From an uncultured bacterium (lineage in GTDB: Bacteria; Omnitrophota; Omnitrophia; Omnitrophales; Aquincolibacteriaceae): 64,000 nucleotides of DNA. The notes under the pieces are model-generated. The model ran no database searches, was not told where the DNA came from, and saw nothing but the letters and a program-made list of their open reading frames with translations. The position numbers and the translations under genes are program-made. The stretch spans positions 2,230 through 66,229 of the forward strand of contig CAZEFF010000002.1 in assembly GCA_964511315.1 (NCBI GenBank). The letters are read 5' to 3'. Numbering within the stretch: position 1 is the first letter of the stretch; each line of letters begins with the position of its first letter. Below are positions 7,382-59,171 of this stretch, piece after piece.

Positions 7382-10300
7382 ATGAGTTTTAAAAAGAGTC
7401 ATCACCGCGCTTGGCGAAAGCGCCTAGCCCTCTTTATTACCATCATTTTTACCGCGCAAAGCCTAGGCTTAGCGCCTCATAACCTCTGCGCTCGAATGGA
7501 GGCAGAGGATATCCCTTTACCTATTTCTGAACCCTCGGCAATTCAGATTCCCCCGGAATTTGGACGCATCGATGAAGTGTTCTCTGGAAGCAATAAAAAA
7601 TTAATTATTCTTATTCAGGATGCTCACAGTATTCCAGAAGCGCAGCGCAGCATCCAAAAAACCATAAGCCATCTCAGTAAAACATACGCGCTTAGCGGCA
7701 TCGCACTTGAAGGAGCATCCGGCCCTCTTGACCCCGTCATGCTGCGAAATTATCCCGATCGGGAAAAGCTTTCCGATGTACTTGCTGAGCTTACGCGCAA
7801 AGGGGAGCTAAGCGGTTCCGTAGCCGCGCTCATTGAGGACGGAATCAAGACACCCGCCTTTGGCCTTGAAAATTGGGAGACATACCTTGAAGGCTTGAAT
7901 CTCTATCGTGAAGCTCTGACCCGTCAAGAAAGGGCGGCACGCAAAATCCACGTCTTGCAAAAACGTCTCGCCCGGGAAAAATCTGCCGCCTACTCAAAAA
8001 AGCTTCTGGCTGCGGATGATATTCGGAACCGTGTCGAGAGTAATGAGGTTGATTTTCTTCACGCACTGCTCGAAATTTCAAAAATCAGCGCCGTTCCCGA
8101 AAACACGCCGCTAAGTCTCATCTTAAATCAGCTCAACCGGGGCCCGGCGGCATCGCAAACTTCGAGAAATCTTGAAAATCTATTTGGAGAGCTGGCTTCT
8201 TATTTTACTCAGAAAAAAAATTCCGAGGCTTTATCGTCGCTGGCGGAAAAACGTCAGAGCTATCAAAGCAGTGAGCTTGATCTCTACGCATTCGCCTCCT
8301 ATTTGCGTCATCTCGCTGTTTCCGAATCCATCCCGACAATTTCCTTAACACCGGATGTTATCGAGCTTGCTGAAGTTTATGACAAACTGAATCAAATAAA
8401 AGGGTCAGCGGTCTACGCGGAATTTGAAACTCATCTTAACCGCACGATCCACGGCCTTATTCAAACCAGCAAACAAAATGAACTGAACCGTCAATCAGAA
8501 ATACTTCGCTTCGAAAATAAGCTCAACCAGCTCCGGCTAACACGCTCAGAACTCAAGCAGCTTGAGACATCTTCATCGGATATAAATAACCGCGGTGCGT
8601 ATCCATCCTTAAACCTTGAGCTAGCGGCTCATTCAGCATTCTATCGGAATACCCTCAAACGGGATCATGAGCTGTATGAAAACTTTAAAAAAATGGCATC
8701 GGAGAAAAATACGCCATCGGCATGGATTATTGTCGCAGGGGGATTTCACAGCGCTGGACTCCTTGAACAGGCGCGTAAGGACGGATTCTCCTTTGTTAAA
8801 ATCTTGCCGGCAATTCGAAGCCTCCCCGAACATGATTTCTACACGGATCACATGGAAGGAAAAGTCAGCTGGGTAAATCAAGAAAGCTTGGATTCAGGCC
8901 GCGGCCTTTATGAAATCTTCTTAACTTTTGCCATGTCGGCTCTTTTTAAGGATTCATCAGAAAATGAAGCTGCATCAGCCTTGCGCGTCTGGCGTCAAAA
9001 TATTATACGAGACCTATCTGAAATAAAGCGTTTAAACGAATCTTCATCTTACACAAAAATAATTGACGCTGAGTTAACAGCGCGGAAATCCGCGTTCTTA
9101 AAGAGAAACTGGATCTCAAATATTAACCGTTTTACTTCGCAGATGGACGAATTAGAAAAATCGGCCCGCCTAAACAAACAGAATGTTTTGGATATTTTAA
9201 AAACACCCGCGATTCCGGCTCTCTTAACAGGCCCAGGGGTCTTGACTCGAAAGGGAATTCCCGCATCAAGGAGCAGGTCAGAAGCGCGCACCGCGGCTTG
9301 GCGCGAGTCTGATGAGCCGCTCAGCCGTAAAGACGTCATATTCGCTATGGGGGAAGATTTTACCGTTCACCTTCCAACAGGGCAAACCTATAAGCTCCCG
9401 AAAGGCCTCTGGGGAAAATACTTCTCTCGGCAGCCCGCTCAGCAGGAAATACGGGAAGTTTTGCCGCCAAAAAGTTCTGAGCCCATCATTCTTATTGAGA
9501 TCACAGTGCCTAAAGCGGAAAGCGATGAGCTGACTGCCGAACTTAAAATTCTCGGGGATGCTGTCACTGAACTTTTCCCCGGCTATAAATACGCTTTCCT
9601 GCCTCCGGAAACAGCCGGAACATCTCAAACGCAGTTTTTAAAATTTTACAAATTTGATATTCTGACCGGAGACACGGCGGCACCGCCGGTGATTCTCGAA
9701 AATGCTCCGAGTATTATCACTGCATCCGCAGGCAATAGCACCAAACCCGCCGGCCCAAATGAAAATCCAATCCTAAACCGCCGAAATTTCTTAACCTTTA
9801 TCAGTCTAAGCGTGATTGGGTCAATCGCCGCATTCACGTTCTGGCCTCGGACAAAGAAGCCTTTGGCTGTACAGCCTGAAACCGTTTCTAAAATTAACCC
9901 GGCAGGAAAAAAACTCGATGAAATCGATTCAGGTGATAGGGAAGCGGTCAAAATTCACTTATCCGGAATTGGCAATTATTTGAGAGAAGGCGGCATTCAT
10001 CCCGCGACCGGCATTGCCCGTGATCACGTTCAAATTGACCGGCTTTCGGGAAAAATTTCGGGAACACCCGCCAATTATTCTTCCCCGTCAAAACTATCAG
10101 TTTATTTACCCTTTTTACTCAAAATTATTCAAGGCGAAGATGTCTTAGCGCTTACAGGAATTTCAAAACGGGAAGCTGTCGAACTTCTTTCAAAATCACT
10201 TTTTTCACTCCGCCGCTTCCAAGTCGAAGGTTCGGGCAGTCACGAAGTTCAGTCGGGATTATTTCCCTGGTTTGAAATGAAAGACGATGGATCCCTTTCG

Positions 10301-13300
10301 CTTGTCCGATATTCCGGCAAGGCAACAATCCCGATCCTTGATAATGGCCAGCTTTCATTCGCGCTCGCGGCCATCGCGGGCGGACTATGGGATTCAAGAG
10401 ATCCTGAACTCATTGAAATTCAAAAAACCGCCCGGGATATTCTTGATCACCAGCATTATGAGGAAATGGTTAACCCCGCGACCGGATTGCTGTTTGAAGA
10501 ATGGGATCTGGAAGGCATGAGGGGAATTGAAAAACCAGGACACGCGAATCTTTGGACCGAATGGATGCTTGCGGTTTATTGGGCTCATTTAAACGGACAT
10601 ATCACTAACGACGCTTGGCTGCGGTTTAATCATGAAATCTATTTTCAGCAGGCAGAAAATAAAGAAATTCCGATGCCCCAAGGATATATTTTTTCGTTTC
10701 ACGAAACCGGATGGCCGCTCCTGTATATACCGGCGATGAAATCAGACCTCGCGAACCTTTATTACAATTATCTTTGGCTTCACGCGAAGCATGCCCGGCA
10801 AAATGGTCTTCCGGGATTTGTCGGCACGGAATACTCTCCCGCGGGGCAATATGCCCAGGCCGGCATTGATATTACAAAGTACGGCAACGGCGTTGTGCTC
10901 GGGCGGATTGATGATTCGTCCTTAAGCGCCCCGTACGCGACAGCATTCGCGGCGCTTATCTATCCTTCCGTGGGATTCAAATGGTCCAATCGTTTGCTGT
11001 CACAAAAGGGCGTTGTCGACAAATACGGGCCCGTGACCTCTTATAAGGTGGATGAAGGGGCATCGCACATTCATACTGCCGACACGACTTTCGCAACCGC
11101 GCTCGCTTTAAGCGGCGGGGTATCCAGAGAAGTCGAAGTTTATTTCAATCGCGCCCGCGGATTATCCGAAAATGATTTGCTCGCGCCCTTCAATCAGCAA
11201 GCCGCGCAAATTCAAAACACATCAAATATTTCGAAATTTGAAACGGTGTCAGGCATACCCCTGCCTCCAAAAAATCTCGGCGCGGTGAAAAAGCCGAAAA
11301 ATATGAAATTGGAAGGTAAAACGGTATCTCTTTTCTCGAAACTCCAAACGGGTCATTGGCACGGAGAAAACGTGAGCGTTCCGGAGGCTTATTGGGATGA
11401 AAAAATGGACAGCACGCAGTCATGGATTTTTCATAAAGGTGAAATCATCGCGGACTACCAGGTAGGCGCAACCATGAAAGATTATGCCTGGCTCGGCACG
11501 CCCGTAGATCCCGTACCGATTGCCGGAGCAAAATATCTTTCGTTTTGGATTCCCGCCGATTTAAAAGAGTACTGGGAAATTGAGCTCAAGCACATCGATC
11601 AGCAGCTTACGTCTTCAAAAATCATCGTGAACACACAGGATACTGCGGTAACTTATGAAACCTCGAAGGATGGAAAATGGCGCCGCCTGCTTATCCCAAT
11701 TAAGCCGTCACCGCATACCGAGTCTGAAACACTTAATTATCTGGCGGTTTCAATTCCAAGCCCATTAACCTCTCCCTCAAAGCGGGAGGGCGCCATCCGG
11801 ATCAAAAATATACAAATCCATTCTGAAAAACCCACGCATGAAAAAGAGTCATTTTCTAAATCCGTTTCATCCGAGGCCGCCTCAGAAGATGGTTCGGTAG
11901 GAAAAAAACCGACCCATGAAACAAAAATTTCGGAACCTTTCTTTTTACTTCTCCGGAAAGAAAAAAGGAACCTTACCAACGGCGACTTACAAAACATCAT
12001 TTTCCCAAGCGGGGTACTGCGCATCGAGCCGCGCGGTCACTGGGCCGGAGAATCGATAAGACTAAGCCCCAATGTCTCCGATTTACGCTACATCTATATG
12101 CGGGTAAGGGCGCCTAATGGAAAAGCCGTTTTTAAAATTGAAATCCCCAATTTAGTACCTATCAAAAAAGAAATACGGATCAATTCAAAAAATTGGCAAA
12201 CGCTTGAAATCGCGCTGGATCAGCCTTTCGCGGCGAAAGATCTGACTTACTTCGCGGTTTCTGACGCGACCGATGTGATAGAGCTGGCTGATTTCCAATT
12301 ATCCGCGAAGGCTATTCCAGGCGCAGAATTATTCGCCTCAACCGATTACTCACCGTCATATTCAGGAATTTACGCGTATGCTTCGAATACTGCCGGCGCT
12401 CATTCCGCTCAAAAAATCGCCGCCGGAGAACTTAACCGTTTAGCGTCACCGCTACCGCTTTCAAATATCCTCCTCGCGAAAGCAGGCCGGTCCGAACTCC
12501 GCACTTCACCTTATTCCGCGAATGTTCTGGCAATCCGGGATTATTTAGTCACCAAAAACGGCAGTACCCAAACAAATCCGGTCGCGGACGCTCTGAAAAA
12601 CGCGATTCATTTGGGGCTTGGCGCGTTTTCAAAAGAAATCGAAACCCTCGTGACCCAGCTGCATAGAGAAAACCGCGCTCACGGAGCTCTCGCAAAACTC
12701 CTGAGCGACCTGATGTCGGAAGATGAAACGACTCTGCGCCAAATTATCGCCTTTGAGCGGATTCTTGATGATAAGCGCGCTTCTGAGCCTTTATCAAGCG
12801 CGGAAGAATGGTCGTGGAAAATTATTAAAAGCCGGGGGATCGGCGATATTTTTTTCGCGAGTCCGGAAGCAGCACCGTTTCTTTCCATGGCAGGCGGAAT
12901 GGCTCCGGCCGTATGGGGACAAGCCAAACTGCTTGCTGATACCGGCGTCAGCGTCTCAATCGTTTCGTTTCTTTATGATCAGGATCAAAACAAAAAACAT
13001 AAATCCGCCCAAGAGCTCATCACAAGCGGCGTCCGTCACGATGGAAAAAAATACGCCTTAAAGAAACTTGAAATGTCACTGCGAATTCCAATTGGGCCAG
13101 TGGTCGAGGAAGCCTTCGGCCACCGGCAAGTCATCGCGGGGCCTCAATCGATACGCGCGGATGTCTATACTTTTGAAGCGGAGGGCGTCCGCTTTTATCT
13201 GCTGCATGAGCCTGAATTGGGAAACAAACTTTATCCTCCCAGCGACTCCATTGACAGCTTTAAGCGTACAATTTTTCTTTCCCGGGGAACACTTGAAGTC

Positions 13301-16300
13301 ATAAAGAATCTCGATGAATTCCCTGATTTCATTGTCTCTCACGATTGGATGGCTTCGTTAATTCCCGCTTATCTAAAAACAACTCTCGCAGGAGTAAACT
13401 CTCTCAGCCATATTCCCGCCGCAAAAAACTATTCCTCGGATGAACATTTCAAAAGCACCAAACCGCTGATGTTTTTACACAACACCTTAAGAGACTACCA
13501 GGCCGCTTTTTACAACAATATGGAAACCGATAAATTTGACCGCAAACGCCGTATTGAACTTTTCCCGCTGTCAGGCCTAGGCGACGAGCATTTCTTTGGA
13601 TTTCAGGATTCGGGCGATGGATCACGCATCAATCTTGCAAAAGCCGGTGCTTTTCATGCCGCGGGAGTATGGCACCCAAGCCTTAAGCACGGAAATGAAT
13701 TACTCGTCCCCGAAACAGGGGAAACGCTTGAATCACTTATGCGTTCGAAAATGCCTTATAATTTCGGCATCAGCAACGCGGTCAATCTTCCCGATATTTG
13801 GTCGGAAATCGATCATATCGGAAAAGACCTGCTCAAATGGGCCCGCGAAAATTCAATCCCGGCTTCAGCGTTAGGATTTTCTGAAGAAATTGAGAACGCT
13901 GCCACCGCGCCATTTACAAAAGATAATTTTAAAAAAGCCCTTCCTTTTTACCGCGCACTTTCAAAACGCTATTTACAGCGCCAGCAAGGGATGAAAGAAG
14001 ATTCGCATGTCATCCTTTCAGGTTTTGTCGGACGCGTCGCGAAGCAAAAGGGAGTCGCGCTCATCCGGGATGCCTTGGTCAGCTATCTTGATCAAACCGC
14101 GGATCAAAACACTCAGCTTTTTATCGGCGGACCAGTAGCCCAAGGAGACAGAGACGCGGAAACGTTTGAAGCGCTTGTCAAAGAACTCGCGGATAATCCA
14201 AAGTACCGCGGCAGGATCGGAGTCAAAGCAGGCGCCAAAGAATTTTTAGATAAAAGAGAAGTCGTGCTTTCATTCTTGGCCATGGACATTTTTCTTATGC
14301 CCTCCGAAAGAGAACCTGGCGGCATCACACAAATTGAAGCATTGGCCATCGGGGTTGCGTTTATCGTCGCTCATTTTATCGGCGGTATCGCGGACACAGT
14401 TACACAATACAACCCCGCGGAAAAGAAGGGGAACGGCTTTTTCTTTCAGCATTTCAGCCGGGATGAATATTTGCGGGCCTGGATCGAAGCCACCGCGACA
14501 ATACATAACCACCCTGATATTGCTGCCAAAAATATTATCGAAAATGCCTTTGAAGCCGCTTTTGACTGGAGCCGTCAAACACCGCTTTACTTGACCATGC
14601 TCAGGTACGTCGCGGGCGGTTGGGTCGAAGGCGATCCGCAAGCCGAGAATGAGATCAAACTGCTGTCTCGAATTTTGGTGGGTAATCCTAAAATTCGTCC
14701 TATTTTAAAAGGCCCAGGACATTCCCTGCAAATCATTGATTCCGAATTCAAAAACCATCCGATTGTGGCCGACCTTTTTGACGGACGGAAAATTGATATT
14801 CAGCTTTTGCCCAATGACATCCCAAGTGGAAATTTTTCCTATGATTTGGCCAACCGCGTATCCTCCTGGAGCAGCGTTAAAAAATCCGATATCAACTTTT
14901 CCGGACCTCCCATTAATTTTCCGTGGGAATCCTATGAACAAACCCTCAAGAAAGAACCCACTCACATCACATTTTCTTACCACAATCTGTACTTCAATGA
15001 CGGGTTTGTCGCCTTCCGGAATCCAAAAGGACTCTACTTTCGGAGAGATGAACCTTTCCGCCGGCGGACATACAGCATGTTTGTTGTCTGGAATAATGGC
15101 GAAGCCACAGCGGAAAAAATTCGCTTCACAAAAAAAGACGGGCAAACACGCGGCAAAGTCCGAGTCGTACGCGCTCAGGCGATTAATCAAAACGTGGATC
15201 TCGGCCCAAAAATAAAATTTGCCATTTTTGGACAGCAGATCATTTCAGAAGGAAAAGCCGTAAAAATTCAGGACCTCGCGCATCAATTTCCCGATATTTT
15301 TCATCTTTATCAGCTTCCTCAATTTCCGCCGGCAGCCGCCAGTGATAAATACGGTCCCGCTATCGGGATCCGTGAACTTTTGAGCGGCCCCACACACGCG
15401 ATTGAGGCATCTGACCGGCCCGTGCTTTTGGAAACTCTGAAAAACGGCGGCCTATCCGAATTTAATCTGCAGCCTTATTTAGGAATGGGCTATTCAATAC
15501 AGGACATCCGGGAAAAGGCTCTCGCTCCGCGGGGCTACAAAGAAGTCTCGGCAGCCATTCCCGGAAATCAACTTGCCGCGGGGGAGTATTTCATTCAGGA
15601 CCGCACTCTTCACATCCGTCTGAAACCGGCGCTTTATCCGCATAACCTAATCGGCATTACCGAAGATGGAAAAGTTGTATCGCTCGTGCTGACCGGGGAT
15701 AAAACCATTGGCGAGGGCTATGCTGTTTCCGATATCGCGAGTCTGGTGAACGATAAATTGAGCCATTTAAAAATCCGCGATCTTTTCCTCCTTGCCAATA
15801 GCGGTGACGCGTTTCGCCGAAAAAATGGAGCGTTTACCCATACGAGCGGCCCAGCTCCTTATACTGCGGGCACCGCCATGATCAGCTTTGCACTTAGCAC
15901 CCCTCGTTCAGAGATCCGTAAAGCCCCGGCAGACCAATCCAATCTCCGCCGCGCGGTAAAAATTACAGCACTCGCGCTGGCTCCTGATGAAATTTTGGGC
16001 GGACACTTTCAGCGGCCTCAAAAAAATGAAATCCAATTTGCGATCCAAGAAATCACCAAACTCCCGCTGTCATCAACGCCGAAATTGCACGATGCGCTTA
16101 TTCATTACAGCTCGTTCGTTTTAAATCAAGAGACAGGCAGCTGGCTTGAAAAACAGCTGCCCATGGACAGCGTCAATACTCCTTTCATTAGTCCCGCGGC
16201 AAGACGCTTAGCCATGACAAAACTACCCAAGACAATCGCAGGAGAAGGTCTTATCTTAGATGAATCATTCGTACTGAAAGGCGGGCTTGCGTTTATTCCG

Positions 16301-16669
16301 ACATTGTTTTTAGATCAGCCGGTTGTTATTCTTACACAAAATAAAGAAATCGAAGCTGAGGTGCAGCGTTTCAATGAAAGGTATCATTTAGCCGTTCCAA
16401 CCGTAAAGACTGTTCCTGATGCCATTATTGCGGTTTCAAAAACTTCGCTCAATAAAAGCAGTCTTACCGCATCAAAACTTGTTCCGCGCGCCTTACTTGG
16501 ACAGGATTACAATTGGAGTATTCGGTCCGCCCTGATTAAGCAATTAGGGGATCAGCAAGTTTCGATTCTCTCAAGTTCCATGGTTGAGTGGATGGCCCAG
16601 ACAGCCGGTGTTTCAGAACTCTTAAGTCAGCTTGCTGAAACCTACTCCCGTATCGCCAAGTCCGCGTAA
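7382..16669 (+). CDS. giant (3095 aa) multidomain protein: signal peptide, TraB/GumN-like region, internal TM helix, DUF3131-like (alpha/alpha)6 glycoside-hydrolase-like domain, beta-rich region, glycogen/starch-synthase-like GT5 glycosyltransferase domain, uncharacterized C-terminal ~650 aa
   Basis: A single uninterrupted ORF. The N-terminus has a signal peptide (RLALFITIIFTAQSLGLA). TraB/GumN-type motifs are present (LIILIQDAHS ... WIIVAGGFHSAGLL). An internal hydrophobic helix follows an RR motif (NRRNFLTFISLSVIGSIAAFTFW), about nt 9778-9846. The GT5-like domain shows EAAPFLSMAGGMAPAVWG near its start, and later FLMPSEREPGGITQIEALAIGVAFIVAHFIGGIADTV (FLMPSE..PGG matches the glycogen-synthase E-x7-E region). 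Confidence 0.6.
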   Translation: MSFKKSHHRAWRKRLALFITIIFTAQSLGLAPHNLCARMEAEDIPLPISEPSAIQIPPEFGRIDEVFSGSNKKLIILIQDAHSIPEAQRSIQKTISHLSKTYALSGIALEGASGPLDPVMLRNYPDREKLSDVLAELTRKGELSGSVAALIEDGIKTPAFGLENWETYLEGLNLYREALTRQERAARKIHVLQKRLAREKSAAYSKKLLAADDIRNRVESNEVDFLHALLEISKISAVPENTPLSLILNQLNRGPAASQTSRNLENLFGELASYFTQKKNSEALSSLAEKRQSYQSSELDLYAFASYLRHLAVSESIPTISLTPDVIELAEVYDKLNQIKGSAVYAEFETHLNRTIHGLIQTSKQNELNRQSEILRFENKLNQLRLTRSELKQLETSSSDINNRGAYPSLNLELAAHSAFYRNTLKRDHELYENFKKMASEKNTPSAWIIVAGGFHSAGLLEQARKDGFSFVKILPAIRSLPEHDFYTDHMEGKVSWVNQESLDSGRGLYEIFLTFAMSALFKDSSENEAASALRVWRQNIIRDLSEIKRLNESSSYTKIIDAELTARKSAFLKRNWISNINRFTSQMDELEKSARLNKQNVLDILKTPAIPALLTGPGVLTRKGIPASRSRSEARTAAWRESDEPLSRKDVIFAMGEDFTVHLPTGQTYKLPKGLWGKYFSRQPAQQEIREVLPPKSSEPIILIEITVPKAESDELTAELKILGDAVTELFPGYKYAFLPPETAGTSQTQFLKFYKFDILTGDTAAPPVILENAPSIITASAGNSTKPAGPNENPILNRRNFLTFISLSVIGSIAAFTFWPRTKKPLAVQPETVSKINPAGKKLDEIDSGDREAVKIHLSGIGNYLREGGIHPATGIARDHVQIDRLSGKISGTPANYSSPSKLSVYLPFLLKIIQGEDVLALTGISKREAVELLSKSLFSLRRFQVEGSGSHEVQSGLFPWFEMKDDGSLSLVRYSGKATIPILDNGQLSFALAAIAGGLWDSRDPELIEIQKTARDILDHQHYEEMVNPATGLLFEEWDLEGMRGIEKPGHANLWTEWMLAVYWAHLNGHITNDAWLRFNHEIYFQQAENKEIPMPQGYIFSFHETGWPLLYIPAMKSDLANLYYNYLWLHAKHARQNGLPGFVGTEYSPAGQYAQAGIDITKYGNGVVLGRIDDSSLSAPYATAFAALIYPSVGFKWSNRLLSQKGVVDKYGPVTSYKVDEGASHIHTADTTFATALALSGGVSREVEVYFNRARGLSENDLLAPFNQQAAQIQNTSNISKFETVSGIPLPPKNLGAVKKPKNMKLEGKTVSLFSKLQTGHWHGENVSVPEAYWDEKMDSTQSWIFHKGEIIADYQVGATMKDYAWLGTPVDPVPIAGAKYLSFWIPADLKEYWEIELKHIDQQLTSSKIIVNTQDTAVTYETSKDGKWRRLLIPIKPSPHTESETLNYLAVSIPSPLTSPSKREGAIRIKNIQIHSEKPTHEKESFSKSVSSEAASEDGSVGKKPTHETKISEPFFLLLRKEKRNLTNGDLQNIIFPSGVLRIEPRGHWAGESIRLSPNVSDLRYIYMRVRAPNGKAVFKIEIPNLVPIKKEIRINSKNWQTLEIALDQPFAAKDLTYFAVSDATDVIELADFQLSAKAIPGAELFASTDYSPSYSGIYAYASNTAGAHSAQKIAAGELNRLASPLPLSNILLAKAGRSELRTSPYSANVLAIRDYLVTKNGSTQTNPVADALKNAIHLGLGAFSKEIETLVTQLHRENRAHGALAKLLSDLMSEDETTLRQIIAFERILDDKRASEPLSSAEEWSWKIIKSRGIGDIFFASPEAAPFLSMAGGMAPAVWGQAKLLADTGVSVSIVSFLYDQDQNKKHKSAQELITSGVRHDGKKYALKKLEMSLRIPIGPVVEEAFGHRQVIAGPQSIRADVYTFEAEGVRFYLLHEPELGNKLYPPSDSIDSFKRTIFLSRGTLEVIKNLDEFPDFIVSHDWMASLIPAYLKTTLAGVNSLSHIPAAKNYSSDEHFKSTKPLMFLHNTLRDYQAAFYNNMETDKFDRKRRIELFPLSGLGDEHFFGFQDSGDGSRINLAKAGAFHAAGVWHPSLKHGNELLVPETGETLESLMRSKMPYNFGISNAVNLPDIWSEIDHIGKDLLKWARENSIPASALGFSEEIENAATAPFTKDNFKKALPFYRALSKRYLQRQQGMKEDSHVILSGFVGRVAKQKGVALIRDALVSYLDQTADQNTQLFIGGPVAQGDRDAETFEALVKELADNPKYRGRIGVKAGAKEFLDKREVVLSFLAMDIFLMPSEREPGGITQIEALAIGVAFIVAHFIGGIADTVTQYNPAEKKGNGFFFQHFSRDEYLRAWIEATATIHNHPDIAAKNIIENAFEAAFDWSRQTPLYLTMLRYVAGGWVEGDPQAENEIKLLSRILVGNPKIRPILKGPGHSLQIIDSEFKNHPIVADLFDGRKIDIQLLPNDIPSGNFSYDLANRVSSWSSVKKSDINFSGPPINFPWESYEQTLKKEPTHITFSYHNLYFNDGFVAFRNPKGLYFRRDEPFRRRTYSMFVVWNNGEATAEKIRFTKKDGQTRGKVRVVRAQAINQNVDLGPKIKFAIFGQQIISEGKAVKIQDLAHQFPDIFHLYQLPQFPPAAASDKYGPAIGIRELLSGPTHAIEASDRPVLLETLKNGGLSEFNLQPYLGMGYSIQDIREKALAPRGYKEVSAAIPGNQLAAGEYFIQDRTLHIRLKPALYPHNLIGITEDGKVVSLVLTGDKTIGEGYAVSDIASLVNDKLSHLKIRDLFLLANSGDAFRRKNGAFTHTSGPAPYTAGTAMISFALSTPRSEIRKAPADQSNLRRAVKITALALAPDEILGGHFQRPQKNEIQFAIQEITKLPLSSTPKLHDALIHYSSFVLNQETGSWLEKQLPMDSVNTPFISPAARRLAMTKLPKTIAGEGLILDESFVLKGGLAFIPTLFLDQPVVILTQNKEIEAEVQRFNERYHLAVPTVKTVPDAIIAVSKTSLNKSSLTASKLVPRALLGQDYNWSIRSALIKQLGDQQVSILSSSMVEWMAQTAGVSELLSQLAETYSRIAKSA

Positions 16670-34362: not shown

Positions 34363-36282
34363 ATGGCAAAAGTACTTGGAATCGATTTAGGAACCACCAA
34401 TTCGTGCATGGCGATCATGGAAGGCTCAGACCCCAAGGTCATCGCGAATAAAGAAGGAAACCGCACCACACCTTCCGTTGTGGGATTCACCAAAACCAGC
34501 GAACGGATCGTGGGACAAGCGGCAAAAAGACAAGCGGTAACCAATCCGGAAAATACTGTTTTCAGTGCCAAGCGTTTTATCGGCAGACGGTATGAAGAAG
34601 TTACAAGTGAAGCGAAACTTGTTCCATTCAAAGTCAAAGCGGGCAAACATGGAGAAGCGGTGATTCACGTCTCTAATGATACCCGTGACTACACTCCGCC
34701 CGAAATTTCGGCGATGGTTCTGCAAAAAATGAAAGCGGACGCTGAAGCTTATCTTGGCGAAAAAATTACGCAGGCGGTCATCACGGTGCCTGCTTATTTC
34801 AATGACTCTCAGCGTCAAGCCACCAAAGATGCCGGGCAAATTGCCGGCCTCGAAGTCTTACGCATTATCAATGAACCGACAGCGGCAGCACTCGCGTACG
34901 GTCTTGATAAAAAGAAAGATGAAACCATCGCGGTCTATGACCTCGGAGGCGGAACGTTTGACGTTTCGATTCTTGAAATCGGCGAAGGCGTTTTTGAAGT
35001 CAAAGCCACGAATGGTGACACGCATTTGGGCGGTGATGACTTTGACCAAAAGATCATCGAATGGCTTGTCGCTGAATTCAAAAAGACTGACGGCATTGAT
35101 CTTTCGAAAGACAAGATGGCCCTTCAGCGTTTGAAAGAAGCCGCTGAAAAAGCCAAATGCGAACTTTCCACATCGCAAACATCAGAAATCAATCTGCCTT
35201 TCATTACGGCAGACGCTTCGGGTCCCAAACATCTTTTACTCAGCCTCACACGGGCGAAACTCGAACAGCTTGTGTCCGATTTGATTGAAAGAACCTTGGC
35301 TCCTTGCGTCAACGCCATGAAAGACGCCGGCGTAACAGCGGCTGATATCGATGAAGTTGTTTTGGTCGGCGGTCAGACCCGTATGCCGGCTGTGGTTGAA
35401 AAAGTAAAAAAGATTTTCGGCAAAGATCCTCATCAGGGCGTGAACCCCGATGAAGTCGTGGCCATTGGCGCTGCCATCCAAGGCGGAGTCTTGAAAGGCG
35501 ATGTGAAAGACATTCTGCTTCTTGATGTCACACCGCTTTCTCTCGGCATCGAAACTTTGGGCGGGGTGATGACCAAGCTCATTGAACGCAACACGACGAT
35601 CCCGACGAAAAAATCCGAAATCTTCTCAACAGCGGCCGACAATCAAACCGCTGTAACTGTGAAGGTTCTTCAAGGAGAGCGTCAGCTTGCCAACGACAAC
35701 CGGGTGCTCGGAATTTTTAACCTGGAAGGCATTCCAGCGGCTCCCCGAGGAGTTCCGCAAGTCGAGGTCACGTTTGATATCGATGCGAACGGAATTGTGC
35801 ATGTGTCCGCCAAAGATTTGGGTACGGGCAAGGAACAAAAAATCCGTATCGAGTCTTCGTCAGGCCTCAACAAGGATGAAGTCGAGAAGCTTGTGAAAGA
35901 AGCTCAGGCTCATGCGGATGAAGATAAAAAGCGCCACGAATTCATCACGCAAAAGAACCAGCTCGACAACCTGGTCTACCAGACAGAAAAAAGTCTAAAG
36001 GATCTCGGCGAGAAAATCACCGCTGAAGAAAAGACCAAGGTGGAAGAAGCGCTGAAAGAAGCCAAAGACGCGCTTGCCACCGAGGATGTCGAGAAGATCA
36101 AAGCGGCTTCTGAGAAACTCACCACAGCGTCTCATGCCATCGCTCAGAAAATCTATGAGGAAGCCGCCAAGAAACAGCAGGCTGCCGGCGGCGGTGCCAA
36201 GGGCGCTAAGGCTGAAGGCAAAGAAGACATCAAAGAAGCCGACTATGAAGTTGTCGATGAAGATAAGAATGAGAAGAAATAA
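34363..36282 (+). CDS. dnaK: molecular chaperone DnaK (Hsp70)
   Basis: 639 aa; canonical Hsp70 signatures ([27 protein letters not shown]) and an acidic C-terminal EEVD-like tail. Confidence 0.95.
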
Positions 36283-36394
36283 CTTCAGCGACAACGACTC
36301 GGACGAGAGCTTCGGGCTCTCGCCGAGCATCCTTAGGCATTGGCCTAAGGGTGAGGTAATCGACGAAGATACCAAGAAAGATAAGTAAGCCTAG

Positions 36395-36433
36395 GGTGCC
36401 AGGTACCCCAAAAAGTGCCTGGCACCTGTTTTT
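36395..36433 (+). terminator. rho-independent terminator after dnaK
   Basis: GGTGCCAGG..CCTGGCACC stem followed by TGTTTTT. Confidence 0.6.
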
Positions 36434-36534
36434 CCCCCTAAGGAAACAGCCGTTTTTGCCGTCGAATAGTTTCAATGCCCGGACAGTCTAATACCTGTAA
36501 GACAAACCCCAGCAATACAACCAAGGAGCCCAAA

Positions 36535-36894
36535 ATGAAGCAGCAAGTTAAGTTTATGGCGGTTCTTTTCGCCGCTTTGATGGTCCTCAGCTCAACCCCG
36601 GCTTTCGCCAAGAAAGACGGAGATCCATCCGGTTGGGGCAAAGGCGAGAAAAAAGGCTGGCATGATGAAAAAATGCCTCCGGGACTTTCTAAAAAAGATG
36701 GTGAAAAGGCCGAACGCGAAGCCAAAAAAGCAAAGAATGAAACAGAGCGGGAAGCCAAGAAAAAGCAAAAAGAAGCCGAACGTGAAGCCAAGAAAAAACA
36801 AAAAGAAGCTGAACGCGAAGCCAAAAAGAAACAGCATGAAGCCGAAGAAGCCGCTGAAAAAGCGAAAGAACAAGCCGAAAAAGCTAATTCTTAA
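36535..36894 (+). CDS. small secreted Lys/Glu-rich repeat protein
   Basis: Strong RBS AAGGAG; signal peptide (MKQQVKFMAVLFAALMVLSSTPAFA); three tandem KEAEREAKKKQ 11-aa repeats. Start taken at the internal ATG of the ORF 36475..36894. Confidence 0.6.
   Translation: MKQQVKFMAVLFAALMVLSSTPAFAKKDGDPSGWGKGEKKGWHDEKMPPGLSKKDGEKAEREAKKAKNETEREAKKKQKEAEREAKKKQKEAEREAKKKQHEAEEAAEKAKEQAEKANS
36710..36850 (+). repeat. tandem 33-nt coding repeats (KEAEREAKKKQ x3 plus degenerate copies)
   Basis: The direct repeat aaagaagc(c/t)gaacg(t/c)gaagccaa(g/a)aa(a/g)aaaca(a/g) is seen three times. Confidence 0.6.
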
Positions 36895-36923
36895 TCTTGG
36901 TTCACCGTTTCAAAGAATCACCC

Positions 36924-36952
36924 AGGCCGGGGCTAAAACCCCGGCCTTTTTT
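36924..36952 (+). terminator. rho-independent terminator
   Basis: AGGCCGGGG-CTAAAA-CCCCGGCCT stem-loop followed by T6. Confidence 0.7.
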
Positions 36953-36992
36953 ATGCTTTTAGACATCTCCATCTAAGGTTAAAATACACCTC

Positions 36993-37979
36993 ATGAATTC
37001 GGTCCCTAAAGATGCATCAAAAGGCGAAGTTGTTTTTTATAAGAATAAGCTCGAAGTCCGTCTTGAAGAAGATACGGTTTGGCTTAGCCAAAAACAAATG
37101 GCTGAGTTGTTTGATAAGGATACGGACACTATTAGCCTTCATATCAAAAACATCTATAAGGAGGGCGAGCTTTCTCGTAAAGCAACTACCGAGGAATCCT
37201 CGGTAGCTCAAAAAGAAGGGCAAAGAATTATTCACAGAAAGCTAACCTTCTATAACTTGGACATGATCATCTCTGTCGGCTACAGGGTCAACTCCAAGAG
37301 GGGTACGGAATTCCGCATTTGGGCGACCCAGGTTTTGAAGAAGCACTTGGTTGAAGGCTATACGCTCAATCAAAGAAGGCTTCAGCTGGCGACAAAGAAA
37401 TACCAAGAGCTAAAAACCGCTGTTAGCCTTATTGGTAATGTCACTTCACTGAAGGGCTTGCCCCAGGAGGCTGTCGGAATCGCTCAAGTCATCTCCCAAT
37501 ATACCCGTGCCCTTGATCTTCTTGATGATTTCGATCATGAGCGCCTCAAAACGCCGACGGGCAGTAAAAAAGCTTCTTTCACAATGAGTTACGGTGAAGC
37601 TCAAAAAATCATCTTCGCTCTAAAGAAAAAATTTAAATCTTCATCTCTTGTAGGACAAGAAAAAGATAACGGGTTCAAAAGTTCTCTGGGAGCGATCTAT
37701 CAAACCTTTGGCGGAAAAGACCTTTACCCAAGCGTTCAGCAAAAAGCTGCTCATCTTCTTTATTTTGTCACGAAGAACCATAGCTTTGTGGACGGCAATA
37801 AAAGAATCGCGGCGGCTCTGTTCATTTGTTTTCTGGATCGCAACAAACTGCTTTTAAAACGCGATGGTGCGAAGCGCATTGATGAAAGCGCGCTTGTGGC
37901 ACTGACTCTCATGATCGCTGCCAGCAAACCCCAAGAAAAAGATTCCATGATCAAAGTCGTGTTAAACCTTTTAAACTAA
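36993..37979 (+). CDS. RhuM-family protein with C-terminal Doc-type Fic domain (HxFxDGNKR)
   Basis: The N-terminus matches the RhuM/virulence-protein pattern (KLEVRLEEDTVWLSQKQMAELF...IS.HIKNIYKEGEL). The C-terminus carries the Fic core motif HSFVDGNKRIAA, which has the Doc-like NKR variant rather than the GNGR of AMPylating Fic. Confidence 0.65.
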   Translation: MNSVPKDASKGEVVFYKNKLEVRLEEDTVWLSQKQMAELFDKDTDTISLHIKNIYKEGELSRKATTEESSVAQKEGQRIIHRKLTFYNLDMIISVGYRVNSKRGTEFRIWATQVLKKHLVEGYTLNQRRLQLATKKYQELKTAVSLIGNVTSLKGLPQEAVGIAQVISQYTRALDLLDDFDHERLKTPTGSKKASFTMSYGEAQKIIFALKKKFKSSSLVGQEKDNGFKSSLGAIYQTFGGKDLYPSVQQKAAHLLYFVTKNHSFVDGNKRIAAALFICFLDRNKLLLKRDGAKRIDESALVALTLMIAASKPQEKDSMIKVVLNLLN

Positions 37980-37982
37980 ATT

Positions 37983-38933
37983 ATGTCATTAATGATCCAA
38001 AAACTTGCCGGCGCTTCGCAAACGCAACCGCTCGCGTCATACGCCGTCCTTCTCAAACAGGTGAGGCACACAATAGCCCAAGGCAAAGAGCGGGCTCTCG
38101 ACGCTGTTGAACGCGAAAAAGTCAGAACCTGCTGGGAAACCGGAAAACTCATCCACGAGCATATCCTTCTCAATCAAGACCGTGCCGCTTATGGTCAAAA
38201 GGTCATCGATAAACTTTCCAAAGACATCGGTGCTAGCCGGACTGAATTGGGTTATATGGTCCAGTTTGCCAAGACCTACCCAATTTACCGGACGTCCGGT
38301 AAATTGACCTGGAGTCATATTCAACAGTTTCTTTCGGTCAATGAGGCTAAACAAAGAGAAACCCTAATATCCCGGGCCTCAAAAGAAAAATGGACTGTAG
38401 CCAAAACTCGAAAAGAGATTAAAAATCTTAAAGTCCCAAAGTCAGGCATGAAGTACGAAGGCCGAACGTCTCTAGACGAAGTGAAACCCGGAAAGCCGGG
38501 CGTTTACCGCATCGTTGAACGCGGAGGCAAAAAATATTACGATCTTGGCTTCTCAACTTATTGGGCAATAAAAGGCCGGGTCCCCAAAGTCACTGAACCT
38601 CCGGCCTCGGATCTCTACACCTACAATGCTGAGCTGATAAGCGTATATGACGGCGACACGTTCCATGCCCGGATTGAACTGGGCTTCGGCGTCATGCAAG
38701 AAATGAGAGTTCGTTTGCTCAGCATCAATGCCCCCGAGATCATCAGTGCCGATGGTCTCAAAGCAAAAAAAATTCTCGAAAAAGTTTTGGCTCGGGGAAA
38801 CGGCAAAATCCTTATTCATTCCAAAGAACTCGATCAGCACGGCCGCCCTTTGGTGGATGTGTGGGTCAGCGATAAAAATATCAATCAGCCGCTTTTAGAT
38901 TCAGGCTACTTTACCGAAAGGAATGGAGAATGA
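37983..38933 (+). CDS. DUF1016(YhcG)-N-terminal domain fused to SNase-like (thermonuclease) domain
   Basis: The N-terminal region matches the YhcG/DUF1016 N-domain pattern (AYGQKVIDKLSKDIG..ELGYM.QFAKTYP....LTWSHIQQFL). The C-terminus carries a staphylococcal-nuclease-like block (YDGDTFHARIELGFGVMQEMRVRLLSINAPEI ... DQHGRPLVDVWV..DKNINQPLLDSGY). Confidence 0.55.
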   Translation: MSLMIQKLAGASQTQPLASYAVLLKQVRHTIAQGKERALDAVEREKVRTCWETGKLIHEHILLNQDRAAYGQKVIDKLSKDIGASRTELGYMVQFAKTYPIYRTSGKLTWSHIQQFLSVNEAKQRETLISRASKEKWTVAKTRKEIKNLKVPKSGMKYEGRTSLDEVKPGKPGVYRIVERGGKKYYDLGFSTYWAIKGRVPKVTEPPASDLYTYNAELISVYDGDTFHARIELGFGVMQEMRVRLLSINAPEIISADGLKAKKILEKVLARGNGKILIHSKELDQHGRPLVDVWVSDKNINQPLLDSGYFTERNGE

Positions 38934-39077
38934 ATCAATCCGTCCAGTCTCTACTGGGCACCCTACAAAAACGGGAGATATTAAATCACTCGGAGGCGGT
39001 GATCCGCTGTAAAATGGCTTTATTCGTATGATGACTTTTATCATCCAATCGTTTTTCACAAATTTTGAGGAGTCTGT

Positions 39078-39797
39078 ATGAAAAAAATAATTCTCTTTAC
39101 CGCTCTTATTGTTGCGGCCGTGGCTATCACCCTCAATATCTTTGGCGCCGCCATTCTGGGAACCGTTCTTCAAGGGGCCATTGGAGCGCCTGTCACAGTA
39201 GGCCGAATTAACCTGGGCCTTTTGACTTCCAATGTGGGTCTCTATGATGTCAAGATCAAGAACCCCGAAGGGTTTAAAGAAAAGGGGCTCACTGAGATTC
39301 ATGAAATGTCGGTGAAGTATGATTTGCCGGCCATTTTTCACGGCCAAATCCACCTGAAGGAAGTACGGCTTGATTTTGGCGACCTGACGGTTGAAAAAAA
39401 CGGCGGCAAAGTTAATTTGCTTGAAATTGGAGCCGTGAAGGGCGCGAAAAAAGAAAAGCCCGCTGAAACAAAAACAGAAGCGCCGAAAGAAACGAAAACC
39501 GAAGCCCCCAAAGCGCAAAAGGGCCCCGAACTCAAAATCGATGAAGTGTTTGTCAATATCGGCAAGGTGCGTTATGTGGATTCAGGAACCGAAGTCCCCA
39601 CGGTGAAAGAATACGACCTCGGCATTCATGATGAGAAGTTTAAAAACGTGACCGATTCAAGGTCGCTCATCAAAAGTATCGTTTTCCTGATTCTCCGGAA
39701 AATCGGCCTTTCTTCAATTACCGGAAACCTTGACCTTCTGCTTAAGGGTGTCGGAGGCGGCGTTGCTGAAACTTTCCAAAAAATCCTGACAGCCTAA
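39078..39797 (+). CDS. hypothetical membrane-anchored protein with ETKTEAPK repeats
   Basis: 239 aa with an N-terminal TM/signal anchor and no clear family. Confidence 0.45.
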   Translation: MKKIILFTALIVAAVAITLNIFGAAILGTVLQGAIGAPVTVGRINLGLLTSNVGLYDVKIKNPEGFKEKGLTEIHEMSVKYDLPAIFHGQIHLKEVRLDFGDLTVEKNGGKVNLLEIGAVKGAKKEKPAETKTEAPKETKTEAPKAQKGPELKIDEVFVNIGKVRYVDSGTEVPTVKEYDLGIHDEKFKNVTDSRSLIKSIVFLILRKIGLSSITGNLDLLLKGVGGGVAETFQKILTA

Positions 39798-58181: not shown

Positions 58182-59171
58182 ATGGATAGTGCGATTCAGG
58201 AAATTAACCGGAAAGTCCGCGACGCGAACACAATTCTTAAAGATCTCTTGCGCGAAATCGGCAAAGTCATCGTCGGTCAACAGTATTTGATCGAACGGCT
58301 CTTGATCGCGCTTTTGGCCGACGGCCACATCCTTATTGAAGGGGTGCCGGGTCTTGCTAAAACGCTGTCGGTAAAAACCCTGGCGCGCGCGGTCAACACA
58401 AAGTTCCAGCGTATTCAGTTCACACCGGATCTTTTGCCCGCGGATTTGATCGGCACGCTGGTTTACAATCCGAAAGACCATACCTTCACCACAAAAAAAG
58501 GGCCGATCTTCTCCAATATTATTCTCGCGGACGAAATCAACCGCGCGCCTTCCAAAGTTCAGAGCGCCCTGCTTGAAGCCATGCAGGAACATCAAGTCAC
58601 GATCGGAGAAACCACTTTTCCTCTCGCGGCGCCTTTTATCGTGCTCGCGACTCAAAACCCGATTGAACAGGAAGGCACTTATCCGCTGCCCGAAGCCCAG
58701 GTCGACCGTTTCATCATGAAGCTTGTTGTCACTTATCCGACAAAAAAGGAAGAAAAAGAAATTATGGAACGCATGTCGATGGGTAAAGACATCGATGTTC
58801 ATCCCGTTATGGAACCCGAAAAAATTCTTGAGCTGCGCAAACTCATGAATGAAATTTATGTGGATGAAAAAGTCAAAGATTACATTCTTGATCTTGTGTT
58901 CGCGACTCGCGACCCGGATGCCTATAAACTATCCGCTCTGAAACCGCTCATATCGTACGGCGCTTCACCGCGCGCGAGCATTATGCTGACACGGGCGGCA
59001 AAAGCTAACGCCTTTATGCAGGGCCGCGGCTATGTCACTCCGGATGATGTTAAGCAAATCGGCATGGACGTTCTTCGCCACCGCGTCCTTCTGACATACG
59101 AAGCCGAAGCCGAAGATATGACTTCTGAAAAAATTGTTCAGAAAATTTTTGATCAGATTGAAGTGCCGTAA
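58182..59171 (+). CDS. MoxR-family AAA+ ATPase
   Basis: 329 aa; Walker A GVPGLAKT; Walker B ILADEINRA; MoxR-specific C-terminal region. Confidence 0.9.
   Translation: MDSAIQEINRKVRDANTILKDLLREIGKVIVGQQYLIERLLIALLADGHILIEGVPGLAKTLSVKTLARAVNTKFQRIQFTPDLLPADLIGTLVYNPKDHTFTTKKGPIFSNIILADEINRAPSKVQSALLEAMQEHQVTIGETTFPLAAPFIVLATQNPIEQEGTYPLPEAQVDRFIMKLVVTYPTKKEEKEIMERMSMGKDIDVHPVMEPEKILELRKLMNEIYVDEKVKDYILDLVFATRDPDAYKLSALKPLISYGASPRASIMLTRAAKANAFMQGRGYVTPDDVKQIGMDVLRHRVLLTYEAEAEDMTSEKIVQKIFDQIEVP

Follow-up and report, generated by a model that had tools for sequence, protein, structure and literature searches.

Do two genes that lie only three nucleotides apart, each of a type linked to conflict or defence, form a single functional system, or are they two independent genes that have come to be neighbours? 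The question is raised by a locus in a 64,000-nucleotide stretch of DNA (hereafter the window) from an uncultured bacterium of the Omnitrophota (family Aquincolibacteriaceae; contig CAZEFF010000002.1, positions 2,230 to 66,229, of assembly GCA_964511315.1). Downstream of dnaK, the forward strand of the window encodes a 328-residue fusion of a RhuM domain with a Fic/Doc domain (gene 1, 36993-37979), followed by a 316-residue fusion of a DUF1016_N domain with a staphylococcal-nuclease-type domain (SNase; gene 2, 37983-38933). A preliminary description of this DNA had reported two linked genes on the same strand with a 3-nt spacer, and open reading frames (ORFs) are indeed found at exactly these positions. 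It had further proposed that the two genes constitute a mobile two-gene toxin or defence module of uncharacterised function. Such a two-gene module is not supported by our data. We favour, with a probability of roughly 0.6, a reading in which two accessory genes of the conflict/defence type, each independent and complete in itself, are adjacent at a rearrangement-prone spot of the chromosome, where they are probably co-transcribed without being evolutionarily coupled.

Absence of a conserved gene pair

Co-occurrence in other genomes, the check that had itself been proposed for the module, gave a negative answer from both sides. On the gene 2 side, 160 loci encoding relatives of gene 2 were surveyed over up to 8 kb in each direction; 123 of these have at least 1.2 kb of upstream sequence, and a few are duplicated between collections. 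Not one of the 160 loci has a RhuM-Fic neighbour that could be found by tblastn with gene 1. The sole match, a Fic domain with 29% identity that lies 2 kb downstream of the gene 2 relative in one locus (L076), was rejected as an instance of a conserved pair. An all-versus-all clustering of 1700 neighbour ORFs revealed no neighbour that recurs between positions -3 and +3, even the most frequent cluster being present in at most 5 of about 130 loci, and a conserved third partner was rejected on the basis of the same clustering. On the gene 1 side, the closest homologues (65-68% identity) occur in six distinct contexts, none of which contains a DUF1016 or SNase neighbour, and tblastn searches with gene 2 were negative there. 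Both genes are thus solitary elsewhere, and their adjacency in the window is not conserved.

The gene found most often immediately beside gene 2 relatives is one with an ORF6N domain (Pfam E=1.4e-30), which belongs to the same PADLOC class, PDC-S05 (E=2.4e-53), that is also hit by the N-terminal domain of gene 1. It was found at 8 of 263 neighbour positions compared to 5 of 998 distant ORFs, an odds ratio of 6.2 (p=0.0016) before de-duplication. After de-duplication, about 6 independent loci remain (L016/L115/L116, L038, L085, L123, L148 and L156), corresponding to some 4-5% of the loci and showing mixed orientations, with four independent cases located directly upstream of the gene 2 relative and on the same strand. 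That the ORF6N neighbours might be RhuM homologues, and so rescue the module, was considered and rejected, as homology between ORF6N and the gene 1 family is undetectable (hhalign probability 0.09%) and about six loci amount to a weak co-localisation only. We read the enrichment as a sign of accessory genes that collect in the same variable spots and not of an operon.

Accessory status and chromosomal position

The preliminary description had taken the two genes to be accessory, and a comparison with three relatives (L170-L172) bears this out. A block consisting of his/trp genes, a histidine kinase, a sigma-54 regulator and dnaK, which occupies 24.7-36.3 kb of the window, is collinear in all three relatives, and in each of them genes 1 and 2 are absent 3' of dnaK. 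The dnaK gene of the window is located at 34363-36282; the best matches of its product show 85% identity. In two of the relatives (L171, L172), dnaK is followed by a gene for a protein of 282-288 residues of unknown function and then by a MoxR/DUF58/BatA operon, all within about 1 kb. In the window, this operon starts at 58182, about 22 kb past dnaK. The remaining relative (L170) has a third arrangement 3' of dnaK, with genes for a glycoamylase and EF-P. Within this clade, a synteny breakpoint follows dnaK, and the pair is located at the edge of a rearrangement-prone region.

We considered whether the interposed segment of about 22 kb (36282-58182) could be a mobile island. This was rejected, as it carries ordinary metabolic and housekeeping genes (for AHSA1-like, TPMT, DedA/VTT and OYE proteins, Tag glycosylase, EF-P, GST, glycoamylase and FAD oxidoreductases) and is devoid of an integrase gene and of tRNA genes. 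The claimed mobility of the pair itself also finds no support: the window contains no tRNA gene, none of the scanned ORFs codes for a recombinase or integrase, and no convincing flanking repeats were found. The only repeat that brackets the pair is an imperfect (86%) inverted repeat of 14 nt (36392-36405 and 38952-38965), which also encloses the preceding ORF and has its left arm within the stem of the dnaK terminator; it is probably a chance occurrence.

According to the literature, type I restriction-modification (R-M) loci harbour RhuM and DUF1016 genes (PMC3710099, PMC9881135), as had been stated. The statement that the pair occurs here outside such a context also holds, as there are no R-M genes among the ORFs scanned between 39.8 and 57.2 kb while the conserved block described above occupies the other side. 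Over the entire range of 24.7-64 kb, the pair is surrounded by his/trp genes, dnaK, metabolic genes and the MoxR/BatA operon, and adjacency to hsdR/M/S was not encountered. The impression of a visibly AT-richer stretch is correct for gene 1, with a G+C content of 0.433 that falls within the lowest 1.7% of same-sized segments, and incorrect for gene 2, with 0.477 versus a mean of 0.475 for the window.

Gene junction and transcription signals

The pair lies downstream of dnaK and its terminator (36394-36427) but does not follow this terminator directly, as had been thought, because an ORF of 139 codons with its own strong terminator intervenes (36475-36894, forward strand). The N-terminus of its product resembles a signal peptide and leads into EREAKKKQK repeats, rich in lysine and glutamate, which originate from 33-nt tandem repeats (36704-36868); the product cannot be assigned to a Pfam family. 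The ORF is closed by an intrinsic-terminator-like hairpin on the forward strand (36924-36947), with a 9-bp stem that includes 8 G-C pairs and is followed by TTTTTT. This hairpin is the left boundary of the transcription unit of genes 1 and 2.

A sigma-70-like promoter candidate (TTTAGA-16-TAAAAT, 36958-36985, forward strand, 9/12 matches to the consensus) ends 8 nt 5' of the ATG of gene 1. The absence of a Shine-Dalgarno sequence in between suggests that a leaderless or near-leaderless mRNA is possible. The promoter call is weak, as such sites are no commoner in the region than in shuffled sequence. At the gene junction (TAA-ATT-ATG, 37977-37985, forward strand), the spacer is 3 nt but would be 12 nt if translation of gene 2 initiated at its second ATG (37992), which is the start selected in a public gene call (P0001, 313 residues). 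We found no terminator-like or promoter-like site between the two genes, and no terminator-like site in the 144 nt 3' of gene 2. Based on the short spacer, the terminator before gene 1 and the lack of one between the genes, gene 1 and gene 2 are probably co-transcribed.

The two genes share a reading frame, so that read-through of the single stop codon would yield a RhuM-Doc-DUF1016_N-SNase fusion. The shared frame is probably a coincidence, since homologues of gene 1 end, and homologues of gene 2 start, at the same points. A non-coding RNA in or around the pair was considered and rejected: an Rfam scan of 36200-39300 gave nothing near the gathering scores, and the sub-threshold matches fall on the terminator hairpin. 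The next gene 3' of the pair (39078-39797, forward strand) codes for a protein of 239 residues with sub-threshold similarity to the N-terminal part of models for the large AsmA/DUF748/YhdP envelope proteins, and may represent a stand-alone domain or else a short fragment resembling AsmA.

The arrangement of the genes might also be explained by a lineage-specific system of recent assembly, co-transcribed and with two arms, the RhuM-Doc protein serving, for example, in sensing or translation arrest and the SNase fusion in the degradation of nucleic acids. This explanation can draw on the common strand, the 3-nt spacer and the shared frame, on the terminator that precedes gene 1 while none separates the genes, and on the ORF6N genes as commonest neighbours of gene 2 relatives, including the four independent cases in the same orientation directly upstream. 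Also, multi-level defence that combines protein-modifying toxins with nucleases has been proposed for R-M-linked loci (PMC3710099). We nevertheless consider it unlikely. The two genes were found together in neither survey and both families are overwhelmingly solitary; the ORF6N genes are adjacent in few loci, have mixed orientations and are not recognisably homologous to the gene 1 family by profile comparison; and the differing G+C contents of the two genes suggest that they have separate histories.

Gene 1, a member of a large catalogued family

The assignment of a RhuM-like N-terminal domain and a Fic fold to gene 1 is confirmed by Pfam matches above the curated cut-offs. The core of the RhuM domain (residues 64-135, encoded at 37182-37397, forward strand) matches Virulence_RhuM (PF13310) with E=1.1e-23 and 84.3 bits versus a cut-off of 33.7, this match being confined to positions 1-72 of the 252-position model. 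The N-terminal half of the protein matches many PADLOC models of the RhuM-class PDC-S05, which span residues ~9-214. The Fic/Doc domain (residues 216-303, encoded at 37638-37901, forward strand) was delineated from matches to Pfam Fic (PF02661; E=2.8e-11, residues 216-281, 44.6 bits versus a cut-off of 24) and NCBIfam TIGR01550, from PDB entry 9vzc, and from structural comparison with Foldseek. Entry 9vzc, a "Death-on-curing family protein", is the sole significant match among PDB sequences (E=1.3e-4).

Fic proteins of the Doc type carry the motif HxFx(D/N)(A/G)NKR, as opposed to HxFx(D/E)GNGRxxR in AMPylating Fic proteins. The corresponding motif of gene 1, HSFVDGNKR (residues 263-271, encoded at 37779-37805, forward strand), has a lysine in place of the second glycine of the AMPylating motif and is invariant in 40 homologues (H263, F265, D267, G268, N269, K270 and R271). 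When an AlphaFold2 (AF2) model of the protein was compared to known structures with Foldseek, the five best matches were all chains of P1 Doc (3k33, 3kh2, 3dd7), with template modelling (TM) scores of 0.62-0.70 and probabilities of 0.99-1.0, whereas the AMPylating FICD ranked 24th with a probability of 0.09. As judged from motif and predicted fold, the Fic domain of gene 1 is of the Doc type and not of the AMPylating type, which agrees with the preliminary description. P1 Doc is a Fic-fold kinase that phosphorylates EF-Tu, as reportedly found by Castro-Roa et al. in 2013. Gene 1 differs from P1 Doc by a RhuM/helical N-terminal extension of about 200 residues, by the lack of a gene for a Phd antitoxin and by a score under the cut-off of TIGR01550 (see below), and a common target of the two proteins would be an assumption by analogy.

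The Doc motif, the Doc-like fold and the tight linkage to gene 2 could be taken to indicate a classical type II toxin-antitoxin pair resembling Phd/Doc, in which gene 2 or some unrecognised small ORF neutralises the toxin encoded by gene 1. We regard this as highly improbable. No gene for a Phd-type antitoxin and no antitoxin-like ORF was found upstream of gene 1, where the space is taken up by the terminator and the unrelated ORF for the secreted repeat protein. A conserved small neighbour is absent from all six distinct contexts of gene 1 homologues. Gene 2, for its part, codes for a nuclease of 316 residues, is located downstream of the toxin gene and is never paired with the gene 1 homologues examined. 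The N-terminal extension of gene 1 would be the likelier regulator.

Gene 1 belongs to the very large single-gene family already catalogued as candidate defence system PDC-S23, within which it is unremarkable, so that the supposed novelty does not apply to this gene. The PADLOC model (PDLC04965) matches end to end, with residues 18-328 aligned to profile positions 17-324 of 327 (E=1.9e-132). The RhuM + Fic architecture recurs in more than 8000 database proteins, the best of them with 60-68% identity, which go under names such as "virulence protein RhuM/Fic/DOC family protein" or "prophage maintenance system killer protein". There is no architectural difference between gene 1 and this family, which like gene 1 consists of solitary genes and is itself a candidate system according to PADLOC. 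Members of PDC-S23 are often found in contexts resembling defence islands, whereas gene 1 follows dnaK and a gene for a small secreted protein and is embedded neither in an R-M locus nor in an evident defence island.

The closest homologue of gene 1 (P0051, 68% identity) is part of a defence-island-like run that comprises SIR2, RhuM-Fic, GmrSD_N/HNH and AAA_13 genes (L173, 5180-11639), and another homologue has a HEPN/MNT pair and a further Fic gene as neighbours. These surroundings, together with the full-length match to PDC-S23, point to an affiliation of gene 1 with conflict systems. Metabolic genes also flank homologues of gene 1. In two different Omnitrophota genomes, the homologue is inserted between gatA, with the stop codon of which it overlaps by 4 nt, and gatB. 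These insertions into gatCAB (65-68% identity; L166 6001-6975, L167 6001-6993, L168 1290-2282) continue with two ORFs of 68-80 codons and a gene for a protein of 272-341 residues that has no family assignment, after which gatB follows.

Gene 2, a DUF1016_N domain with a swapped nuclease

The preliminary description had assigned to gene 2 an N-terminal domain of the YhcG/DUF1016 type, combined with an SNase domain in place of the usual PD-(D/E)xK nuclease. Pfam matches, a family profile and structural superposition all agree with this. The N-terminal domain, which is all-helical (residues 27-148, encoded at 38061-38426, forward strand), matches DUF1016_N (PF17761) with E=1.2e-20 and 74.5 bits versus a cut-off of 32.8. 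Within and just beyond it, residues 78-150 show a weak match to a ParB-type helix-turn-helix (HTH) model (PF17762), which with 21.4 bits is just under the cut-off of 22.6. The C-terminal part (residues 213-309, encoded at 38619-38909, forward strand) is a nuclease domain of the SNase type with an oligonucleotide/oligosaccharide-binding (OB) fold, which was identified by alignment, profile and superposition: residues 242-309 match Pfam SNase (PF00565) with E=2.6e-7 and 31.5 bits versus a cut-off of 21, and a profile built from 47 family sequences matches S. aureus thermonuclease in the PDB with E=1.4e-12. Between the two domains, the family alignment and the AF2 model reveal a family-specific three-stranded beta element (residues 176-195, encoded at 38508-38567, forward strand) with an invariant D187-L188-G189.

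The AF2 model of gene 2 has a predicted local distance difference test score (pLDDT) of 88 and consists of seven helices (residues 20-148), the three-stranded element and a beta-barrel (residues 213-306). The barrel superimposes on SNase with ~2.0 Å over ~108 residues (TM score 0.69), whereby D225, R244, E252, D284 and R288 correspond to SNase D21, R35, E43, D83 and R87. An alignment of 145 family members shows no variation among aligned residues at the positions of D21, R35, D83 and R87, and 139 members retain the counterpart of E43.

Gene 2 has no match to PF06250, the PD-(D/E)xK domain, and carries the SNase domain in its place. The PDC-S02 models of PADLOC match only the N-terminal domain (residues ~15-156, up to E=6e-26), and genuine DUF1016_N + PF06250 proteins (P0048/P0049) match only 40% of gene 2 (E ~1e-6), so that the term "swapped nuclease" is accurate. 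With the YhcG/DUF1016 nucleases, gene 2 shares the homologous helical N-terminal domain, the layout of N-terminal domain plus C-terminal nuclease and a similar length. It differs in the unrelated nuclease fold, in the distinct and narrow taxonomic range of its family and in the many family members that are predicted to be exported, and, as it lacks the PD-(D/E)xK domain, should not be filed as YhcG. The SNase/thermonuclease family (PF00565), which includes YncB-type proteins, has the OB fold in common with gene 2, as well as the residues D21, R35, E43, D83 and R87, the counterparts of which are near-invariant in the gene 2 family. Gene 2 differs by the additional DUF1016_N domain of 150 residues, by the beta element in which DLG is invariant, by an insertion in the barrel ("DLGFG") and, in the window copy, by N, Q and H at the positions of D40, K84 and Y85. 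Nucleases of the ParB type from plasmids RK2/RP4 are also members of the SNase family.

A protein that combines DUF1016_N with SNase was not found to be described in the literature. A second copy of gene 2 in the window was looked for and rejected: the only tblastn match (E=0.07, 15054-15245) is not credible as a nuclease domain and falls within a giant ORF of 3095 codons (7382-16669, forward strand).

Distribution and predicted export of the gene 2 family

The family to which gene 2 belongs is small, little known and unstudied, and consists of solitary genes. A word-indexed search retrieved 47 clusters; 339 confirmed stretches were obtained from species-representative genomes and at least 479 from metagenomes, while 155 representatives at 50% identity (E <= 1e-30) were found among 1.84 billion. 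The hosts are overwhelmingly metagenome-assembled genomes of Omnitrophota and of Opitutaceae/Verrucomicrobiota, with a few Planctomycetales, Elusimicrobiota and Syntrophaceae. At NCBI, the relatives are named "thermonuclease family protein".

The best 80 of the 339 hits come from 56 genomes, of which 17 contribute two or more copies and one contributes five. The five loci encountered in one metagenome-assembled genome, JAZDJU01, are L023, L031, L036, L039 and L045. Copies from the same genome are scattered in unrelated contexts and only 37-77% identical, which indicates old paralogues or separate acquisitions; recent transposition was rejected for this reason. The neighbours include housekeeping genes (purB, ligA, purC, a gene for an ABC-F protein) as well as genes of the mobile or toxin-antitoxin type (ORF6N, HigA-like HTH, PIN, AAA_14/DUF4143, XerD-like). 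Tight operon packing was rejected as a general trait of gene 2 relatives, as the intergenic gaps are ordinary and uninformative.

Textbook Sec signal peptides with AxA sites (e.g. ...AFA|Q, ...SYA|Q, ...AWA|Q) were recognised in 16 of 47 gene-called family members. In members derived from longest-ORF calls they were flagged in 71 of 137, which is probably an overestimate. The carriers are mostly copies from Omnitrophota (P0002, P0003, P0006, P0008 and P0010 among them; loci L003-L045 and L081-L147), while most copies from Opitutaceae are without a signal peptide. The window copy also has none, and an in-frame TAA directly upstream excludes a longer N-terminus.

Export of this kind raises the question whether the gene 2 family is involved in immunity at all. 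It might instead represent a DNA-scavenging or envelope-associated nuclease that has expanded in Omnitrophota and Opitutaceae, the window copy being a cytoplasmic or decaying paralogue and its adjacency to gene 1 coincidental. SNase enzymes require high Ca2+, as is typical outside the cytoplasm, and this fits such a role, as do the signal peptides, the divergent paralogues and the frequent housekeeping neighbours. The same can be said of the minority residues that the window copy has at three metal or substrate positions, and of the lack of protection by a representative of PDC-S02 (both detailed below). This role is less easily reconciled with a window copy that has no signal peptide yet keeps the core catalytic residues, with the PIN, HigA-like and ORF6N genes in the neighbourhood of relatives, and with an N-terminal domain that is common to YhcG/DUF1016 proteins, which are enriched beside R-M and inversion loci (PMC9881135). 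On balance, we consider a non-immune role of the family possible, if rather doubtful.

Favoured reading and proposed mechanism

Two independent accessory genes of the conflict/defence type remain our preferred explanation. Published data lend plausibility to their affiliation. RhuM-DOC fusions have been proposed as toxins alongside R-M systems (PMC3710099); beside genes targeted by inversion, most of which are R-M genes, an enrichment of 14-fold has been reported for RhuM genes and of 17-fold for DUF1016 genes (PMC9881135); and a single RhuM-domain gene of class PDC-S05 reduced the plating of T7 and T5 about 1000-fold in E. coli (bioRxiv 10.1101/2024.09.26.614923).

Several observations weigh against this explanation. 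The 3-nt junction and the weak ORF6N enrichment leave some room for a functional link. With respect to gene 1, the match to NCBIfam TIGR01550 (DOC_P1; residues 250-303) reaches 31.2 bits and is under the cut-off of 38.65, so that the protein is Doc-like and not, by that model, a bona fide type II Doc toxin. Its AF2 model has an only moderate pLDDT of 66.6, with ~80 in the Fic region. Also, the protective PDC-S05 protein may or may not have a Fic domain, and the representative of PDC-S02 (DUF1016) tested in the same study was not among the protective candidates (bioRxiv 10.1101/2024.09.26.614923). With respect to gene 2, the window copy deviates from SNase in having N249 at the position of D40, a Ca2+ ligand, where 136 of 145 family members have Asp and 8 have Asn. 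It further has Q285 at the position of K84 (as in 13 of 145) and H286 at that of Y85 (as in 10 of 145). Activity may be reduced by the replacement of the Ca2+ ligand, and, judging from these residues, the nuclease of the window copy may be attenuated. Finally, Sec signal peptides are present in a third to half of the members of the gene 2 family, which accords better with an extracytoplasmic role than with intracellular immunity; a purely intracellular immune role is thus doubtful for the family as a whole.

What we infer about the enzymatic targets, trigger, regulation and defence phenotype of the two genes is the following. The Doc-type Fic domain (HxFxDGNKR) at the C-terminus of gene 1 would act as a protein kinase which, by analogy with P1 Doc, would phosphorylate EF-Tu and so stop translation. 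The RhuM domain and the long central helices may hold the kinase in check as long as no trigger, for instance phage infection, is perceived; this N-terminal part of about 200 residues, with its RhuM domain and coiled helices, would then replace a separate Phd antitoxin as regulator. Once triggered, gene 1 might confer protection of the abortive-infection type. In gene 2, the helical and ParB-HTH-like DUF1016_N domain may target the enzyme, whether by binding nucleic acid or by other means, and the SNase domain would be a Ca2+-dependent phosphodiesterase that cuts DNA or RNA.

A more far-reaching proposal, which we put forward only tentatively and regard as doubtful, is that DUF1016_N::SNase proteins constitute an undescribed single-gene nuclease system which has radiated in Omnitrophota and Opitutaceae to give several divergent paralogues per genome, and in which a targeting or sensor domain taken over from defence-island nucleases of the YhcG type is joined to a Ca2+-gated SNase effector. 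Exported forms would block incoming DNA, or digest DNA of prey or from the environment, in the periplasm or exterior of ultra-small and possibly host-dependent bacteria, while forms that stay in the cytoplasm, the window copy among them, would be suicide or immune nucleases triggered by Ca2+. At the present locus, such a nuclease would possibly have been recruited into an operon with the RhuM-Doc toxin to give a two-armed abortive-infection unit.

Implications

The adjacency of the two genes is not conserved, and this result keeps a spurious "new two-gene system" out of the catalogues of defence systems. Gene 1 adds just one more member to a very large catalogued candidate family, and the remaining interest lies in the small DUF1016_N::SNase family with its split into exported and cytoplasmic forms. 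Gene 2 illustrates that DUF1016_N is a portable module able to drive at least two unrelated nuclease folds, which argues that the N-terminal domain, and not the nuclease, carries the family-specific targeting or sensing. The exported/cytoplasmic split and the expansion into multiple paralogues in Omnitrophota and Opitutaceae provide testable clues to the function of DUF1016-type proteins, and the family may bear on how these poorly known and largely uncultured bacteria handle foreign and environmental DNA.

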